From Clostridia bacterium (GTDB lineage Bacteria > Bacillota > Clostridia > TANB77 > CAG-465), in NCBI GenBank assembly GCA_045652705.1, contig JAZRUV010000001.1:12268-76267 (forward strand): DNA of 64,000 bases. Direction: 5' to 3'. This document shows positions 1-7,190 of the stretch, piece after piece. The first letter of the stretch is position 1, and every line of letters starts with the position of its first letter. The notes beneath the pieces were generated by a model. It saw only the letters and a program-made list of their open reading frames with translations. It made no database searches and had not been told where the DNA came from. The position numbers were made by a program, and so were the translations under genes.

Positions 1-184
1 TAAAATTCACACAGAATATCTTTTAAAAGTAAAAGAAAAACTAAACAAAATCCTAAGTGAAAACACAGGAAAACCATTAGAACAAGTTGAAAAAGATACA
101 GATAGAGATAACTTCTTATCTAGTGCAGAAGCTAAAGAATACGGCTTAATAGACGAAGTTATGAATAGTATAAACGAGTTATAA
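1..184 (+). CDS. clpP: ClpP protease subunit, C-terminal fragment (5' end outside window)
   Basis: Frame 2 reads ...[37 protein letters not shown], stop TAA 182-184. Typical ClpP C-terminus and clpP-clpX synteny. Confidence 0.85.
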
Positions 185-194
185 GGAGAGAACC

Positions 195-1499
195 ATGGCT
201 AAAAGAACAACAAATGATGATTATGATATATTTTGTTCGTTTTGTGGCAGATACAAAGATGAGGTCGGCAAATTAATTGCCGGCCCTAATGGCATATTTA
301 TATGTGAAGATTGCATAGATATCTGTAACAAAATAATACTAGAAGACCTTATAGAAGAGGAAGATTTAGAAAACATTCTAATGGAAGAAGAAAATACTAG
401 TAAAAAGAAAGCAAAAGCAAATAAAGAGCTTATAGAAAATACAGAGCTGCCTACTCCAGACCAAATAAGAAAGATATTAGATGAATATGTAATTGGACAA
501 GATGATGCAAAAAGAGTACTTGCAGTTGCAGTATATAACCATTATAAACGTATTAGAAATCTAGACAAGATAGATGATGTGGAGATACAAAAAAGTAACA
601 TTCTTATGATGGGACCTACTGGATGTGGTAAAACTCTTATGGCTCAAACATTAGCTAAAGTATTACGTGTTCCATTTGCTATAGCAGATGCAACAACTCT
701 TACAGAAGCTGGTTACGTAGGTGAAGATGTAGAAAACATACTTTTAAGACTTATTCAAGCTGCAGATTACGATATATCTAAAGCTGAAAAAGGAATTATA
801 TATATAGATGAGTTAGATAAGATTACTAGAAAATCTGAGAATCCATCTATAACAAGAGATGTTAGCGGTGAAGGTGTTCAACAAGCGCTTCTAAAAATAA
901 TAGAAGGAACTGTTGCAAATGTACCTCCACAAGGCGGCAGAAAACATCCTCAACAAGAATATTTAAAGATAGATACAAGTAATATTCTATTTATCTGCGG
1001 TGGAGCTTTTGAAGGCTTAGATAAGATTATAGAAAATAGAATAGGGGAGAAATCCATTGGTTTTGGCGCTAAAATAGAAGAGAAAAAAGATATAGACTAC
1101 AAAACTATATTTAAAAATGTTCTTCCAAATGATATTATTAAATTTGGTCTAATACCAGAGCTTGTAGGGCGTCTTCCAATAATAACAACTTTAGGCCAAT
1201 TAGATGACAAAGCTTTAATAGATATTGTTACAAAGCCTAAAAATGCATTAATTAAGCAATACAAAAAGCTGCTTAAAATGGATAAAGTAGATTTAGAATT
1301 TAAGAAAGATGCTATTGAAGAAATAGTAAAACTTGCATTAGAAAGAAAAACTGGCGCAAGAGGCTTAAGAGCGATTTTAGAAGAAGTAATGTTAAATCCA
1401 ATGTATGAAGTACCTTCTAATAAAAACATTAAGAAATGTATAATAACAAGAGAAGTTGTAACTAAAGAAATTGGACCTATATATGAATATAAAGAATAA
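195..1499 (+). CDS. clpX: ATP-dependent Clp protease ATP-binding subunit ClpX
   Basis: N-terminal zinc-binding CxxC...CxxC (CSFCGR...CEDC), Walker A GPTGCGKT, Walker [18 protein letters not shown] pore loop. SD AAGGAGAG upstream. Confidence 0.97.
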
Positions 1500-1512
1500 G
1501 TTGAAGATATGA

Positions 1513-1540
1513 AAAGGACAGCAAATTAATGCTGTCCTTT
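1513..1540. terminator. Hairpin between the convergent clpX and 1526..2005 genes
   Basis: AAAGGACAGC-8 nt loop-GCTGTCCTTT. Weak T tract, and it overlaps the 3' end of the minus-strand ORF. Confidence 0.5.
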
Positions 1541-2005
1541 GGCCTCTCTTTTTGATTTGAGTTTTTCAAATATCTTGTTTACTATGAATGAGCAGGGGAA
1601 AGTTAACAAGGCTCCAATAGTAACTGATAACACTGCAAGCAAAGCTCCAAGGATTATAGGGGCGTTCTTTTCAGTATATAAACGGGGTCCTTCTAATTGA
1701 ATATGTGTAAACTCTTTATCGTGTGTAAAATATAATGCAAAAGTACACGTTCCTTTAGTTAACCTGACAACAATGGCTTTGTCTTTAGGGGCTATTGAAT
1801 AGTTGTCTTGCAAATATACATTTTCAAAATCTTGTTGGATAATTTCTGCTTGTTCATATAGCGCTTGAGAATCAGTTTCATATTTATTTAAGTTCCTTAC
1901 TATTATCAAGTCTGTTGTTACAGCAAACAAAATAATAGCAATCAGTGCCCAAATAAAATAGGGATTACTTATAACTTTAAGAACAGATTTGCAAAGTTTT
2001 TTCAT
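1526..2005 (-). CDS. Hypothetical membrane protein (N- and C-terminal TM helices)
   Basis: 159-aa ORF with hydrophobic segments at both ends, SD GGAGAG upstream, visibly GC-richer than the neighbours. No recognisable family. Confidence 0.55.
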   Translation of the reverse strand: MKKLCKSVLKVISNPYFIWALIAIILFAVTTDLIIVRNLNKYETDSQALYEQAEIIQQDFENVYLQDNYSIAPKDKAIVVRLTKGTCTFALYFTHDKEFTHIQLEGPRLYTEKNAPIILGALLAVLSVTIGALLTFPCSFIVNKIFEKLKSKREAKGQH

Positions 2006-2025
2006 AATTACTCTCCTTTAAAAAT

Positions 2026-2397
2026 TTATTTATTATTTGAGATGTGCAAGTGAATTATCTTAGCAAGATTATGAGTTTGAAACGCTAAAAAATTAAGCTC
2101 GTCTGTAATAACTGCAAGGGCAACGGGAAAATATTTGTCATCTTTTGAAAGTTCTTCGAGAAAAGAATCGAAATATTGAGTAGCATTTTTATCGTAGATG
2201 GCAGCTTTAACCGCCTCGATAAAAGTCACAACATCAATTTCATCTTGATTGACATTAGGCGTTCGATATTGCTCCTCAATAATTGTTACACCTCGTCCAG
2301 GTGTACAAATAAAAAGCTGATCCAACTTGCCATCTGAAAAACCAAAGTCGTAATTTTGTTTTCGTACTTGATCGTTAAACATAAAATGTTTAATCAT
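2026..2397 (-). CDS. Hypothetical protein
   Basis: 123-aa ORF with SD AGGAGGTG upstream, transcribed divergently from the LexA-box promoter region. No recognisable family. Confidence 0.55.
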   Translation of the reverse strand: MIKHFMFNDQVRKQNYDFGFSDGKLDQLFICTPGRGVTIIEEQYRTPNVNQDEIDVVTFIEAVKAAIYDKNATQYFDSFLEELSKDDKYFPVALAVITDELNFLAFQTHNLAKIIHLHISNNK

Positions 2398-2508
2398 AAA
2401 AACACCTCCTAAAATTATTTAATAGGTATATTCTAAATTCTTGATAATTATATCACACAATAGGAATAAAAGCAATACAGTAAACATAATACAGTTACAA
2501 ACAAAAAA

Positions 2509-2570
2509 CGAACAAATTTTCGATAAATTTAAAAATTACTATTGACAAACGAACGTATGTGCTATATAAT
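2509..2570 (+). promoter_or_regulatory. Sigma-A type promoter with two LexA (Cheo/SOS) box-like sites
   Basis: TTGACA 2543-2548, 16-nt spacer, TATAAT 2565-2570. CGAACAAATTTTCG at 2509-2522 and CGAACGTATGTGCT at 2550-2563 resemble the Firmicute consensus CGAAC-N4-GTTCG. The second site lies between -35 and -10. Confidence 0.6.
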
Positions 2571-2602
2571 ATTAGCAGAACAGAGGTTCGGGAGGTAATA
2601 TT

Positions 2603-2899
2603 ATGAAAAGATATAGATTAAATATGAAAAGAATAATGACAAACATATGCATAATTTTATTGTTTATTATAGTAATGAATTTCATTTCCAATTTCACTTT
2701 TGGAAACAAACATATAGATACTAAGTCTGTTACTGTTGCAAGTAACGATACTCTTTGGAAGATAGCTGAAGATGTTTGTAATAACTCTTCTGAAGATTTA
2801 AATGTACAAAATATAGTTATTGAGATAAAGAATATAAATAACTTAAAAAGTAGCAACATTTATTCTGGGCAAGTATTAGAAATACCTATATATAATTAG
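2603..2899 (+). CDS. yneA: YneA-like SOS cell-division inhibitor (N-terminal TM helix + LysM domain)
   Basis: 98 aa with a TM segment (ICIILLFIIVMNFI) and a LysM motif (VTVASNDTLWKIAEDV...GQVLEIP). Same size and architecture as B. subtilis YneA. LexA-box promoter upstream, SD GGGAGG. Confidence 0.6.
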   Translation: MKRYRLNMKRIMTNICIILLFIIVMNFISNFTFGNKHIDTKSVTVASNDTLWKIAEDVCNNSSEDLNVQNIVIEIKNINNLKSSNIYSGQVLEIPIYN

Positions 2900-2915
2900 A
2901 AATAATATAAAAGGA

Positions 2916-2940
2916 CACTGCAACAATTTATGTTGCAGTG
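2916..2940. terminator. Bidirectional hairpin terminator
   Basis: CACTGCAACA-ATTTA-TGTTGCAGTG followed by a T-rich tract. Confidence 0.6.
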
Positions 2941-3218
2941 TTGTCTTTCTTAGCATTTTTATTGGACAATATTTTATCCACAATACCAATTAAGAGTACG
3001 CCTAACAGAGAAAGAGAGATTATCCAACCACAGTAGAAAAGTGTCAAAACGAATATCCAACCTACTAATTGTAAATTAGCTGGTATAAGAGGGAGAAGGC
3101 CGCCATTACATAGCAACGTAGTTGTTAATATTGAAATAATAATTGAAACAGTAAATGTAATAACTATTCTTTTATCTGTACAACTAATGTAAATCCGTTC
3201 CTTTTGCATTTTTAACAT
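2928..3218 (-). CDS. Hypothetical small membrane protein
   Basis: 96-aa ORF with 2-3 hydrophobic helices and SD AGGAGATG upstream. Confidence 0.45.
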   Translation of the reverse strand: MLKMQKERIYISCTDKRIVITFTVSIIISILTTTLLCNGGLLPLIPANLQLVGWIFVLTLFYCGWIISLSLLGVLLIGIVDKILSNKNAKKDNTAT

Positions 3219-3298
3219 CTCCTTAAAATTATTTTAGAGTTAATAATAAAACCACAAATATTATAACATAATACTTGTGATTTTTCAAATTATATTAA

Positions 3299-4255
3299 TT
3301 ACATATTATTTAATGGATTGTTATCTATAGCATTTTTAACTTCTTCACTATCTATATGAGTATATATTTGAGTAGTAGCTATAGTTTCGTGTCCTAATAC
3401 TTGTTGTAATGTTCTAATATCTACACCACCATATTTGTGCATTAGAGTAGCTGCAGTATGTCTAAGTTTGTGGGGTGTGTATTTCTTAGGGTCAAGCCCA
3501 GCCTTTACAATATAGTCTTTAACCATTATTTCAACCATTCTAGGACTTATCCTTTTATACTTTCTACTAATGAATAAAGCATGTCTATCTTCGCCTTTAA
3601 CCTTATCTATTGGTCTATCCTTAAGGTAATCTTGAATTGCATCTAAACACGCCTTATTTAAGTGTACAGAGCGTTCTTTGTTACCTTTACCAATGACAGA
3701 TAGGGAATCGCCTTTAATATGCTCCATATTTATATTTACAAGCTCAGAAAGTCTTAACCCACAGTTTAAGAAGATGGTTAAGATTGCATAGTCTCTAGTT
3801 TTAAACTCGCCATCAACAGAGTGGAGTAGGGACTTGGCCTCAGTAAGTTCTAAATATTTTGGTAATCTTTTTTCTAATTTTGGTGATTCTAAACCTACAC
3901 AAGGATTTCTGTCTATTATTTTTGCAACATTACATAAATAATTAAAAAAAGATCTAATTGATGAAATTTTTCTAGCTCTAGAAATTGCTTTAGTATTTTT
4001 ATCATATAAATATTCATATATATCTGAAACTTCAATTGATTTAAAAAAACTTGCATCTAAATCTGTAATATTTATTTCTTTAAAATTTTCAACTTTAATA
4101 TTATATTTATCACGTTTAATAAATTGAAATGCATCACGTAAGTCATAATAATATTCTTTAACAGTTGTTTTAGATCTGTTTTTAGTTATTATTAAGTAAT
4201 TTTTAAGATAATCTTGTAAAATTCTTGGCATATCATCAAATGTCATTTGTTTCAT
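3299..4255 (-). CDS. Tyrosine site-specific recombinase (XerC/XerD/integrase family)
   Basis: C-terminal catalytic signature HKLRHTAAT...LGHETIATTQIYTH, plus an upstream R (GLRLSEL). ATG at 4255 preferred over the TTG at 4267 because GGAGG (4261-4265) precedes it. Confidence 0.9.
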   Translation of the reverse strand: MKQMTFDDMPRILQDYLKNYLIITKNRSKTTVKEYYYDLRDAFQFIKRDKYNIKVENFKEINITDLDASFFKSIEVSDIYEYLYDKNTKAISRARKISSIRSFFNYLCNVAKIIDRNPCVGLESPKLEKRLPKYLELTEAKSLLHSVDGEFKTRDYAILTIFLNCGLRLSELVNINMEHIKGDSLSVIGKGNKERSVHLNKACLDAIQDYLKDRPIDKVKGEDRHALFISRKYKRISPRMVEIMVKDYIVKAGLDPKKYTPHKLRHTAATLMHKYGGVDIRTLQQVLGHETIATTQIYTHIDSEEVKNAIDNNPLNNM

Positions 4256-4271
4256 AAAAACCTCCAAAAAA

Positions 4272-4296
4272 CGACGCTCTAAAATCGATTTTAAGA
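4272..4296. repeat. Left inverted repeat (IR-L) of the candidate invertible segment
   Basis: CGACGCTCTAAAATCGATTTTAAGA is the exact reverse complement of 5077-5101. It contains the internal palindrome TAAAATCGATTTTA. Confidence 0.9.
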
Positions 4297-4701
4297 CGTT
4301 TTTAGAATTGGGGTGGTATCATTTGACGTCTGAAAAAAGCCTTTAAAATCGAATTTGAGGAAAAGGGCTAAAATTAGTTAAATTTTATAAATTGTATATA
4401 AAAGTATATACTAAATATAAAATATATAGTAAAATAATATAGTAATGAATGACAACTTATAATAAGTAGAGTGAAATAGAAAGTTAAATAAATATATTTA
4501 TATAAATAAGAATATATATAAGGTGTCAGACAGCATATAAGCTATGTATACTAATATTATAATAGAAGTGGGCTAAATAATCAATAGCTCCTTCTCCAAA
4601 ATACACAAAATATTTATTTTGCGAAATAAGGCAAAACAAAATAAACGGTCTTTGACCTTCTATGCCTTGCCCTATCTCACTTATATGGATTTCACTATTT
4701 T

Positions 4702-5025
4702 TTACTTTTTGTAAATTTTATATTCTTTCCAATTATAAAAATTATTTTTACAATCCGCTGTTATCTTATTTATAGATAAACTCAAATCAAAAATATCTTC
4801 TTCAAAATTATTTTTATCAAAAAACAATTCAACTGGTATTTCTTCCATCTTCTTATAATATAAAGATCTTCTTGTAAATGCTAATGAATTAATTATAAGA
4901 CTTGCGTATCTTCTATTCAACTTTAAGTACACATACTTGTTGTTCTTAAGTTTCAATTTTTGCTTCATTTGTTTTTCTATTATATTGTTTTTCATTCGAT
5001 TTCTGATGATATACGGTACAAACAT
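4702..5025 (-). CDS. Hypothetical basic protein carried inside the IR-bounded segment
   Basis: 107-aa K/N-rich ORF with a good SD (AAAGGAGAG, 7 nt before the ATG) next to the inner repeat motif. No family recognised. Confidence 0.5.
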   Translation of the reverse strand: MFVPYIIRNRMKNNIIEKQMKQKLKLKNNKYVYLKLNRRYASLIINSLAFTRRSLYYKKMEEIPVELFFDKNNFEEDIFDLSLSINKITADCKNNFYNWKEYKIYKK

Positions 5026-5076
5026 TAAATCACTCTCCTTTCAGACGTAAACTTTATCACCTTGAAAATTTTAACC

Positions 5077-5101
5077 TCTTAAAATCGATTTTAGAGCGTC
5101 G
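5077..5101. repeat. Right inverted repeat (IR-R) of the candidate invertible segment
   Basis: TCTTAAAATCGATTTTAGAGCGTCG is the exact reverse complement of 4272-4296. Confidence 0.9.
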
Positions 5102-5208
5102 GTTTTTGTTCATATTTGTATAAAATAAATCAAACCCCTACTATATGTAGAGGTTGATTATAAGAGGTTATATATGAAAACTAAAGTTTTCTTTAGTCAG
5201 CATTCAAT

Positions 5209-5941: not shown

Positions 5942-6664
5942 TTATATATCTGCATTATGCCAAACGTTTTGAACGTCGTCATTTGCTTCCATTTTGTCTA
6001 TAAAATTCTCAAGTTTTGTTGCTTCTTCTTCAGATAATTCTTTCTTTATTGTTGGAACCATTTTAATTTCTGCTTCAATTGCTGTATATCCTTTAGTTTC
6101 AAGGTATTCGCTTATTTTAGCAAAGCTTGTTGGTTCAGCTATAATTTCAATGCATTCTTCATCAGATACCATATCTTCAGCACCCAAATCTAGTACTTCC
6201 ATCATAAGTTCATCTTCATCAATATTTGCTGACTTTTCTAATACGAACACTGCTTTTTTGTTGAACATATATCCAACAGAACCTGTTTGTCCCATGCTTC
6301 CGCCGCTTCTATCAAAGATACATCTAATATCTGCAGCCGCTCTATTCTTGTTATCTGTCATTGCTTCAACTATAACAGCAACACCGCAAGGACCAAAACC
6401 TTCATATGTTATTTCTTCATAGTTTGCGTTACTACCTTCTCCTGATGCTTTTTGAATACATCTATTTATATTATCATTTGGCATGTTGTTAGCTTTTGCT
6501 TTAGCTATAACATCTCTTAATTTTGCGTTATTTGCAGGATCAGGTCCACCTTGTTTAACTGCAACAGTCAATTCCTTCCCTATTTTTGAATATATTTGGG
6601 CTTTCTTTCCATCTACTGCTTCTTTTCTTCTTTTTATATTTGCCCATTTGCTATGTCCTGACAT
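5942..6664 (-). CDS. yebC: YebC/PmpR family DNA-binding transcriptional regulator
   Basis: Starts MSGHSKWANIKRRK; 240 aa with typical family length and motifs. Confidence 0.93.
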   Translation of the reverse strand: MSGHSKWANIKRRKEAVDGKKAQIYSKIGKELTVAVKQGGPDPANNAKLRDVIAKAKANNMPNDNINRCIQKASGEGSNANYEEITYEGFGPCGVAVIVEAMTDNKNRAAADIRCIFDRSGGSMGQTGSVGYMFNKKAVFVLEKSANIDEDELMMEVLDLGAEDMVSDEECIEIIAEPTSFAKISEYLETKGYTAIEAEIKMVPTIKKELSEEEATKLENFIDKMEANDDVQNVWHNADI

Positions 6665-6812
6665 AATTTCACACTCCTTTTAATTTTACCTTAATTATTT
6701 TACCATAATTTTATTCATTTGTGTAGCCCTATTTAATAAATTATAGCTAATATTAGATTATATCATAAGAGTAGGGAGTTAAAATTAATAGTGATTTTAT
6801 AGTATTGAAAAA

Positions 6813-6838
6813 ATGCGTGCAAATGCACGCATTTTTTT
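6813..6838. terminator. Bidirectional rho-independent terminator
   Basis: ATGCGTGC-AAAT-GCACGCAT flanked by an A run and a T run. Confidence 0.75.
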
Positions 6839-6848
6839 CATCTTAATC

Positions 6849-7190
6849 TTAACAGATGGGGCGAAAATTTCCAGTAACTTCGAAAAGCTTGGGGAAAGCA
6901 TTACGGAGAGCTTCCAAACTTGCAAACTTTCCGCCATCATCATTCAAATTTCGCATAATGTTGCCCTTATCATCAGCGGGATGAAAATCAGCTGTTACGC
7001 CATATGTTTTGGCAAGATGTTTCCACGTTACACCGATACCTTCAAAAGTATGGCCTTCAGGAACATCTACGGCAAGAACGTTCTCGTGCACGATCCAAAG
7101 GTAAAGATTTTTGGACATGCCTTCAGACTTGAGGATAGCTTCTTCTAAGGTCATTTTTTGTTCTTCTGCAAAGATGTTTTTCAAAACCAT
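6849..7190 (-). CDS. Hypothetical protein (GC-rich single-gene insert)
   Basis: 113-aa ORF with SD AAGGAGTG. Local G+C is clearly above the flanks (about 45% in a hand-counted 60-nt stretch). The opposite-strand ORF 6813..7148 starts inside the terminator hairpin and was rejected. Confidence 0.5.
   Translation of the reverse strand: MVLKNIFAEEQKMTLEEAILKSEGMSKNLYLWIVHENVLAVDVPEGHTFEGIGVTWKHLAKTYGVTADFHPADDKGNIMRNLNDDGGKFASLEALRNAFPKLFEVTGNFRPIC

Follow-up and report, generated by a model that had tools for sequence, protein, structure and literature searches.

The window, by which we mean the whole 64-kb stretch of DNA analysed, contains a single tyrosine recombinase gene (xer), preceded by a compact series of elements. 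Read in the direction of xer, an SNase-like gene and its terminator are followed by an inverted distal copy of a module that we call O1, by ORF107 and by dif; then come a promoter-like site (P1), an AT-rich spacer of ~300 bp, a further palindrome (O2), the proximal O1 module, the ribosome-binding site (RBS) and xer itself. The individual features are:

3299-4255, minus strand: Xer-family tyrosine recombinase gene, 318 aa, matching Pfam Phage_integrase (E=5e-38) with a SAM-like N-terminal domain.
4261-4265, minus strand: RBS of the recombinase gene, GGAGG, conserved in relatives.
4265-4300, no strand: left repeat (IR-L), the proximal O1 element, containing the perfect 25-mer (4272-4296) and reading TTAAAATCGATTTTAGAGCGTC in the recombinase orientation.
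4326-4333, no strand: inner box ACGTCTGA in the proximal O1 module (~70 bp); this box and the O1 block are the parts of the module that stay conserved from lineage to lineage.
4341-4359, no strand: O2, a third, degenerate O1-like palindrome, 64 bp from IR-L and also found in close relatives.
4360-4555, minus strand: AT-rich spacer or leader from P1 to the O1 module, with no Rfam match.
4556-4584, minus strand: promoter-like P1, TTGATT-17-TATAAT, pointing at the recombinase gene and recognised by consensus match only.
4600-4627, minus strand: dif, ATTTCGCAAAA-TAAATA-TTTTGTGTATT (11-6-11, 28 bp), the single match in 64 kb where 0 are expected by chance.
4702-5025, minus strand: ORF107, predicted small basic protein of inovirus/IMEX origin, whose homologues adjoin dif in inovirus prophages.
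5041-5108, no strand: distal inverted O1 module including the right repeat (IR-R), with the perfect 25-mer at 5077-5101.
5133-5155, minus strand: hairpin resembling a terminator, assigned to the SNase-like gene upstream; it lies immediately beyond IR-R and is kept in relatives.

An earlier note on this DNA had described the locus as a candidate invertible switch, and the elements on which it built are indeed there. The 25-bp inverted repeats are real: CGACGCTCTAAAATCGATTTTAAGA at 4272-4296 is matched by its exact reverse complement at 5077-5101; the palindrome TAAAATCGATTTTA is found in both repeat cores, and the inner boxes ACGTCTGA and TCAGACGT (5041-5048) are present. The recombinase gene, the enclosed 107-aa ORF, and the recombinase ATG at 4255 with its GGAGG, the latter two read directly, all lie on the minus strand as claimed. 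Similarity between the repeats extends to 36 nt at 94% (4265-4300 and 5073-5108), and a 25-mer search of the window allowing up to three mismatches returned these two matches alone (0.00 expected, 100 shuffles). The degenerate third copy, O2, was not among the features listed in that note.

The best NCBIfam matches of the recombinase, to XerC with 231.7 bits and to XerD with 206.9, miss the equivalog cut-offs of 335 and 330, respectively, and its score against archaeal XerA is 199.6 bits against a cut-off of 220. The catalytic set of E. coli XerD (1A0P), R, K, H-x-x-R, H and Y, has aligned counterparts in the protein, and its relatives carry the NCBI name XerC. There was no record of protein products identical to those of the window xer and ORF107, and a protein-based scan of metagenome contigs found no relative of the recombinase. 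The expectation that transcription of xer would come from inside the segment fits a candidate promoter, P1 (4584-4556, minus strand); no other conserved site upstream of the gene looks like a promoter. At the same position relative to dif, L003, L004, L007 and L019 (loci in relatives are given by such numbers) have TTGATT, TTGCAA or TTGACA and, after 17 nt, TATAAT, TATTAT or TACTAT. Because P1 lies inside the segment, inversion would separate it from the recombinase gene.

The locus is placed at the replication terminus because GC skew and gene strand bias both flip there. The cumulative GC-skew maximum falls at ~2200, ~2.4 kb from dif, where a skew of +0.17 turns negative, and the genes to the right are nearly all on the minus strand; the same skew and strand flip is found directly 3' of the recombinase gene in L001-L004. 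Sequence and setting together mark the recombinase as a probable Xer-family enzyme, conserved on the chromosome at the terminus, and the segment between the repeats holds a canonical-looking chromosomal dif site, with 19 of 28 positions identical to what we take to be the dif of B. subtilis. Genes for xerC are reported to lie mostly near dif (Kono et al., PMC3025954).

Loci that encode an identical recombinase (P0046) made it possible to see where foreign DNA enters. In five of them dif is empty (L019, L021, L022, L024 and L026), while in three a prophage with a Zot-family (pI-like) gene is found at dif (L020, L023 and L025), and between empty and occupied loci sequence identity resumes exactly at ATTTCGCAAAATAGATATTTTGT. 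The definition of dif is validated by this comparison of empty and occupied sites. In L007, a prophage encoding a Phage_CRI replication protein and Zot lies between a hybrid dif and a full dif, flanked by a 21-bp perfect direct repeat that corresponds to the left arm plus centre of dif. The inovirus prophages of these relatives have no integrase of their own and end exactly at dif, and the alignments show dif to be the attachment site that filamentous (inovirus) prophages occupy there. Viral matches to a dif half-site (L080 and L081) lie inside phage genes and were set aside as chance.

ORF107 appears to descend from such elements. It is 36% identical to ORF106 of L003 (E=3e-15), and further homologues are ORF109 and ORF86 of L007 and, recognised by sequence inspection, ORF120 of L020; the two copies of the family in L007 form a 146-nt direct repeat with 71% identity. 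Its dN/dS of 0.05-0.15 implies purifying selection, and these comparisons show ORF107 as a member of a family that phages carry beside the dif junction, kept here by selection. No Pfam or PHROG family matched ORF107, a protein-based scan of viral contigs returned no relative, and its AF2 model is poor (pLDDT 56, three helices) and too weak for a fold search. It may act as a repressor, as an Xer activation factor like XafT, or in some other way. The 64-kb window contains no second dif-like junction, and of the element ORF107 alone remains.

The repeats themselves belong to a much more widespread element. O1 is a conserved element of ~22-35 nt, found 173-365 bp from dif in 33 distinct units (16-26% G+C) from many lineages, and in all 33 the two keep the same relative orientation, with or without a second O1. 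The proximal 22-mer has 0 mismatches in every relative of the window's group, and O1 is conserved ahead of xer genes down to ~55-60% protein identity and also stands beside dif in a clade with an xer of 53% identity. Relatives that lack the right repeat still have the left one, in invariant form. O1 stays coupled to dif in L035, which has no xer downstream, and on insertions that carry no recombinase (L064 and L086), and many unrelated contigs likewise contain the 22-mer. Extra copies lie after the xer stop and before a convergent LysM gene (L019, L021 and L037), and just downstream of endolysin genes on viral contigs (L084 and L085), and a mobC-relaxase fragment (L050) has one at each end. 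The element can be read as two 11-bp arms (7/11 symmetric) around the 6-bp centre ATCGAT, and the arms are unlike those of dif. We found no description of O1 in a literature search. Across many lineages the comparison shows O1 as an invariant element in physical coupling with dif; its role may be that of an accessory site, a recombination site, a boundary or a terminator.

The distal copy has a far narrower distribution. The alignments show the right repeat to be another O1 module of ~70 bp, inverted and restricted to a single group of lineages: the module is a ~72-bp indel relative to L005 and L006, and the distal O1 was found only in nine close lineages, with 0-3 mismatches in the 22-mer. 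Its orientation could be read in 15 assemblies from these 9 lineages, counted if they contain both O1 copies or the distal copy with ORF107/dif (dS 0.25-1.2 among the distal-O1 genomes). In 15 of 15, ORF107 and dif are co-oriented with xer, assemblies being reports of the majority orientation in which a rare inversion would not show; the junction sequence diagnostic of the reverse orientation is CCTCCAAAAAACGACGCTCTAAAATCGATTTTAAGAGGTTAAAA. The short ORF107 contigs L075, L078 and L079 are not bounded by both repeats and show no sign of an assembly bubble, and L075, which breaks off within the proximal O1 yet continues across the distal copy, is at odds with an inversion bubble.

The repeat centre is identical in both copies in the window, L002 and L078, while the central CG of the distal copy is changed in three of the nine lineages (L001, L076/77 and L087-91), a change that would block exchange with the proximal copy if the crossover takes place at the centre. 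At 0-3 changes per 22 nt, the distal O1 is conserved well above its flanks, the adjacent spacer differing (by eye) at a large share of positions, which suggests that some function is retained. The conservation of the distal copy and the perfect 25-bp pair in the window count against a static reading of the locus.

On balance, we are probably looking at the Xer/dif locus that marks the replication terminus in an uncultured Clostridia bacterium and not at a purpose-built switch. The dedicated invertible switch put forward in the earlier note is not supported, because the recombinase gene is a conserved one of the Xer family at the terminus and the segment holds dif, and because the left repeat is invariant without a right repeat, only one orientation is seen among the 15 assemblies and the distal centre is mutated in three of nine lineages. 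We propose that O1 would serve as a protein-recognition element of an extended dif locus, either as an accessory or architectural site or as a secondary recombination site. The inverted pair may have arisen via duplication or rearrangement at the dif recombination hotspot and would now be essentially static, with no routine ON/OFF inversion, and the distal copy may weakly retain an O1 binding function across dif.

An unlikely alternative, and the one that survives best, holds that O1 is a transcription regulator or boundary, either the operator of a repressor or a protein-assisted bidirectional terminator ending the P1 transcript, with the two copies simply flanking and insulating the ORF107-dif-P1 unit. 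The position of O1, 8-16 nt before the xer RBS and flanked by an A-run and a T-run, speaks for this, as do the extra copies at gene ends described above and the finding that where xer does not follow O1 (L035 and L064) the next gene is on the opposite strand. However, the hairpin is weak and was missed by the terminator scan, fold z-scores for O1 range from +0.7 to -1.8, and the consensus fold of 15 lineages reaches -1.2 kcal/mol with no compensatory pair, a common T-to-C variant breaking a pair uncompensated. A plain terminator would not hold 22-35 nt invariant at 53-60% xer identity, and no regulator gene is consistently linked to O1. With no relevant Rfam match, weak folds and 0 compensatory pairs across 15 lineages, a structured RNA was rejected, and a sigma-70 promoter within the O1 module was likewise discarded for the unsuitable spacing of its conserved boxes (~24 alignment columns).

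Two further readings, which we consider improbable to the same degree, give O1 a role in strand exchange. In the first, O1 would be functionally tied to dif across a wide range of Clostridia, as the second recognition or crossover site of an Xer system, possibly one with a single recombinase, that captures recombinase-less cassettes, and in this lineage the inverted pair would flip dif, the xer promoter and the phage-derived gene at low frequency. The cassette junctions of L064 fit integration at dif and those of L086 fit integration at O1; since the two disagree, the evidence for O1 as the crossover point of cassettes is ambiguous.

The second is a genuine inverton, in which the Xer recombinase or a partner exchanges strands at the O1 copies and flips the 780-bp segment, disconnecting P1 from the recombinase gene and reorienting dif and ORF107. 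The perfect 25-bp pair adjoins a tyrosine recombinase with intact catalytic residues, a conserved promoter-like site lies within the segment, O1 can be read as 11-bp arms around the 6-bp centre ATCGAT, and the distal O1 is conserved above flank level. Xer enzymes are known to invert DNA between opposed sites on Acinetobacter plasmids, and the known Xer-mediated inversions involve site pairs with identical central regions (PMC9947245). Against this stand the absence of a flipped orientation from all 15 assemblies, which span nine diverged lineages, the mutated distal centre in three of these nine, and arms that do not resemble those of dif. The proximal O1 is invariant in many lineages that have no partner copy, so inversion cannot be its primary role. 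Symmetric lox and FRT spacers set no directionality and also permit deletion; the O1 centre is a perfect palindrome and would give no direction either, so that exchange there could equally remove dif and the promoter. Switching off the recombinase that is needed to flip back would, moreover, be an awkward design.

It is highly improbable that a small transposable element or MITE with ORF107 as its cargo has the repeats as its inverted ends: inverted repeats do surround a small ORF and the 22-mer is found in many unrelated contigs, but no target-site duplication is evident, no transposase was found, O1 elsewhere is single and beside dif, and the inner 370 bp (dif, P1 and spacer) is conserved host sequence in relatives without the right repeat. 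The multi-copy transposon that the earlier note had offered as its own alternative gains nothing from the window, where the 64 kb holds these copies only. Also rejected were IR-L and IR-R as a hybrid attL/attR pair (from a palindromic attB and attP), as relatives without IR-R have the 370 bp between IR-L and dif as conserved host sequence and phages join at dif, not O1, and a kinship of the module's inner box with the C. difficile RecV repeat AAGTT(A/G)CTAT(A/T)TTACAAAAAA, which is mere AT-rich similarity.

A phase-variation switch, which the evidence does not favour, would have been a minor finding. The locus instead allows dif to be defined by its sequence in gut Clostridia that are uncultured, and places integrase-less inoviruses of Gram-positive hosts at dif. 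Inovirus integration at dif is well documented in Proteobacteria; in a limited search of the inovirus literature, we found no description of it for Gram-positive inoviruses. The locus also ties to dif an invariant element of 22-35 nt that is present on phages and small cassettes too. Should O1 turn out to be an accessory or crossover site for Xer, mobile DNA would have one more way than is now known of exploiting the machinery of chromosome-dimer resolution.

Several known systems share parts of this arrangement. The cer and psi sites of plasmid resolution combine an Xer core with ~180 bp of accessory sequence, and they may resemble this locus in having a core site at a roughly fixed distance (173-365 bp here) from conserved DNA, in a coupling that here persists on mobile cassettes. 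In contrast to cer and psi, the locus is chromosomal, its accessory region lies on the side of the better-conserved arm, and no PepA-, ArgR- or ArcA-type partner was identified. The C. difficile RecV switches and E. coli fimS likewise combine short inverted repeats, an internal promoter and a tyrosine recombinase, but here the flipped form is absent from all 15 assemblies, a housekeeping recombination site lies within a larger segment, and the left repeat is widespread without a partner, whereas such switches are readily seen in both orientations among strains, C. difficile BI1 being an example (PMC5386303). The pdif (pXerC-D) modules of Acinetobacter also place opposed quasi-palindromic sites of ~28 bp in an Xer context, and pdif pairs invert when their central regions are identical (PMC9947245). 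Unlike these modules, the locus is chromosomal, its repeats are not dif-like in sequence and would bind Xer only putatively, a real dif lies inside, and no structural variants were seen among 15 assemblies.

Closely comparable are the integrative mobile elements exploiting Xer (IMEX; filamentous phages at dif such as CTXphi, TLCphi, VGJphi and XacF1). Relatives of the window have integrase-less inovirus prophages at dif, with a full dif on one side and a hybrid half-dif on the other, and in the window a small phage-derived gene persists beside dif; the differences are that the hosts are Gram-positive Clostridia and that the window retains a one-gene remnant with no second dif-like junction. 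With XerS/difSL of streptococci and lactococci, and with the xerC genes that many bacteria have near dif, the locus shares an Xer recombinase gene beside an 11-6-11 site near the skew switch, here a unique site ~350 bp upstream of the gene. It departs from these loci in a protein that falls below the curated XerC, XerD, XerS and XerA thresholds, and from Xer/dif loci generally in the additional, invariant O1 that is coupled to dif.

The inverted repeat that the earlier note had proposed as the ends of an invertible DNA switch is exact, with CGACGCTCTAAAATCGATTTTAAGA at 4272-4296 matched by its perfect reverse complement at 5077-5101, and a repeat finder lengthened this match to 36 nt at 94%. 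The 64-kb window was searched for further copies of the 25-mer at ≤3 mismatches and none was found, shuffled sequence also giving 0. The inward boxes ACGTCTGA and TCAGACGT were present as described, and the ATG (4255) and GGAGG (4261-4265) of xer, the tyrosine recombinase gene on the minus strand at 3299-4255, had likewise been placed correctly. Between the repeats lie the following features:

4341-4359, degenerate third palindrome, found by repeat search
4600-4627, minus strand, dif site ATTTCGCAAAA-TAAATA-TTTTGTGTATT, single occurrence in the window
4584..4556, minus strand, promoter-like site P1 (TTGATT-17-TATAAT), directly after dif

The dif site is thus within the supposed invertible segment. 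The xer product is a 318-aa protein with Phage_integrase and SAM-like domains, with which the catalytic R, K, H-x-x-R, H, and Y of E. coli XerD align. Its best NCBIfam matches were XerC (231.7 bits) and XerD (206.9 bits), each under the curated cut-off, archaeal XerA scored 199.6 against a cut-off of 220, and its relatives carry the NCBI name XerC. GC skew starts at +0.17 (first 2 kb) and lies below zero from ∼3 kb to the window end, cumulative G-C peaks at ∼2200, and strand bias switches within 1-3300, between ClpX (plus strand) and a long minus-strand run rightward; the right-hand genes are almost all on the minus strand. Four MAG loci have the order YebC, SNase-like, xer, LysM, ClpX in common, and in these loci skew and gene strand both switch just 3' of the recombinase. 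Because of these switches and the common gene order, xer is a conserved chromosomal gene at the replication terminus. It has been reported that xerC genes tend toward positions near dif (Kono et al., PMC3025954). The LysM gene (2603-2899, plus strand), which is transcribed convergently to the xer region and kept in relatives, encodes a protein whose match to the SOS cell-division suppressor YneA scores 57.6 bits (cut-off 60), and no lexA was seen nearby. Leu leader Rfam matches on both strands between the YebC-like gene and an ABC transporter (6778-6953) stay under the gathering score of 50, at 32.5 and 26.4 bits, and are probably spurious.

Loci encoding one identical recombinase, P0046, occur in two states, with either a 760-bp intergenic region or a prophage carrying a Zot-family (pI-like) gene, and identity between empty and prophage-bearing loci resumes precisely at ATTTCGCAAAATAGATATTTTGTTACTT. 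The inovirus at locus L007 is complete, having a Phage_CRI replication protein, a 590-aa protein, Zot, and small coat-sized ORFs. The direct repeat on either side of it, TATTTCGCAAAATAGATATTT, is 21 bp long and perfect, with the full 11-6-11 site at the right junction and a hybrid at the left. A similar prophage is present at L003, where the recombinase shares 96% identity with that of the window. Prophages at dif beside xer, in relatives of window 4600-5110, are:

L007:958-7655
L003:395-5638
L020:1-4657

These are complete or near-complete (gpII/Phage_CRI, Zot/pI, coat-sized ORFs). The dif-sited inovirus prophages lack an integrase of their own and have a hybrid dif on one side and a full dif on the other, a pattern that resembles IMEX behaviour, here in Clostridia, which are Gram-positive. 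The window's dif matches the B. subtilis dif at 19 of 28 positions. P1 keeps its position and hexamers even in relatives whose recombinase is as little as 60% identical. A conserved GGAGAAGGA directly follows dif (4585-4599, minus strand; same place in L003, L007, and L019), is directed away from it, and resembles GAGAAGGG, the recognition sequence of B. subtilis SpoIIIE. In L035 (7329-7356) and relatives, with xer 53% identical, the dif arms are near-perfectly symmetric (ATTGCGCAAAA / ATTGCACAAAA), an arrangement that would fit a Xer system with one recombinase.

The 107-aa ORF107 (4702-5025, minus strand) had no Pfam or PHROG match, and its AF2 model of three helices (pLDDT 56) is too weak for use. 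Homologues form the last gene before dif in prophages (L003 ORF106, L007 ORF109, and, by inspection, L020 ORF120), and older remnants keep them too, as with L007 ORF86. Its dN/dS across six lineages is 0.05-0.15, and it is therefore a working gene. Since its synonymous divergence in some cases exceeds that of xer, the sequences suggest that ORF107 alleles may have been replaced by phages.

The left repeat belongs to an element, O1, whose 22-mer TTAAAATCGATTYTAGAGCGTC lies upstream of the xer ribosome-binding site in all relatives fetched by protein; a DNA scan of metagenome contigs added 47 loci. In 33 distinct units O1 is separated from a dif-like site by 173-365 bp of AT-rich spacer, and the relative orientation of the two is constant in all 33. 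This coupling is kept in a clade with xer 1.6 kb off on the opposite strand and on recombinase-less, cargo-bearing insertions (L064, L086). Among 15 aligned lineages a block of ∼35 nt, ATAAAAAYGNCTTAAAATCGATTYTAGAGCGTC, is invariant, and their alignment gave no conserved fold (consensus -1.2 kcal/mol, no compensatory pair). O1 matched no Rfam family, and no description of the motif was found in the searchable literature. Because the block is invariant, with neither a conserved fold nor an Rfam family, we conclude that O1 is probably recognised by sequence.

O1 also occurs in other settings. In a clade with xer 70% identical (L019, L021, L037), a second module lies past the xer stop codon, before the convergent LysM gene, so that two direct copies bracket xer (L019:4962-4983 and 5997-6018). 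Copies in tailed-phage contexts, and insertions of 0.85-1.9 kb starting directly after the O1 T-run, are:

L056:273-294, tailed-phage context
L071:4136-4157, tailed-phage context
L084:2280-2301, tailed-phage context
L085:7768-7789, tailed-phage context
L054:1803-1824, tailed-phage context, upstream of a divergently transcribed tyrosine recombinase (32% identical)
L086:3733-5463, insertion
L064:8763-10689, insertion
L067:457-1311, insertion
L015:3538-4784, insertion

The first four adjoin phage lysogeny or lysis modules, the settings being next to a CI-type repressor, in the interval separating CI from an integrase-like gene, and just 3' of endolysin genes; the phage copies may be attachment sites or terminators. 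The insertions carry a membrane protein, a 322-aa ORF, and small ORFs, without a recombinase. In L064 and L086 the whole dif-half/P1/spacer/O1 unit is directly repeated on both sides of the insertion, and whether entry was at dif or at O1 is ambiguous. The O1 22-mer, with one variable base, is also within a conserved, structured-looking intergenic stretch of G+C-richer genomes (L033:1622-1643, L061, L028, L062). These loci may be one family that matches by chance and is unrelated; the stretch matched no Rfam, tRNA, or tmRNA model. The sole other inverted O1 pair found is on a 1.4-kb contig (L050:1-1448), where a MobC-like gene and a relaxase fragment are enclosed by long inverted repeats (>100 nt by eye), each beginning with a full O1 module.

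L005 and L006 also have ORF107, and their recombinase is 97% identical; relative to them, the stretch from the SNase terminator to the ribosome-binding site of ORF107 is longer by ∼72 bases in the window, L001, and L002. The added bases repeat the proximal module in inverted orientation: the TCAGACGT box, then O1, then the T-run. With further loci gained by lookups with ORF107 homologues, this distal copy was found in 15 assemblies of 9 lineages, and ORF107 and dif are co-oriented with xer in 15/15. In all loci the 22-mer is free of mismatches in the proximal copy and has 0-3 in the distal, the distal central CG being altered in L001, L076/77, and L087-91. By eye, the distal O1 is better conserved than the adjacent spacer, and some constraint is therefore left. 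The outer flank of the right repeat, GGTTTTTGTTCAT (5094-5106), equals the first cassette bases after O1 in L086 (3727-3746), where a (TATATTA)n microsatellite (2870-2920) lies directly outside the distal copy. This match of flank to cassette hints, weakly, at an O1-cassette junction as the source of the distal copy.

The locus is best read, with moderate confidence, as static, its O1 module having been duplicated at a Xer/dif hotspot. O1 might instead act at the level of transcription, a rival reading that is live though unlikely. What stood of the proposed switch is its perfect repeat pair, an adjacent and apparently live recombinase, and promoter-like P1 inside the segment, and Xer-mediated inversions on Acinetobacter plasmids provide a precedent (PMC9947245); however, flipping between the O1 copies is improbable, given that none of the 15 assemblies carries a flipped allele despite deep divergence, that O1 is widespread without a partner copy, and that its arms are unlike those of dif. 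To judge by symmetric spacers of other tyrosine-recombinase sites, the palindromic O1 centre would moreover impose no direction, and deletion of dif and the promoter would be permitted too. The distal centre is also mutated in one third of the lineages, and active inversion pairs on the Acinetobacter plasmids have identical central regions (PMC9947245).

Xer/dif loci, xerC adjoining dif, and filamentous phages at dif are already known kinds, and what is new is the definition of a Clostridia dif, backed by inovirus junctions, together with the O1 element coupled to it.
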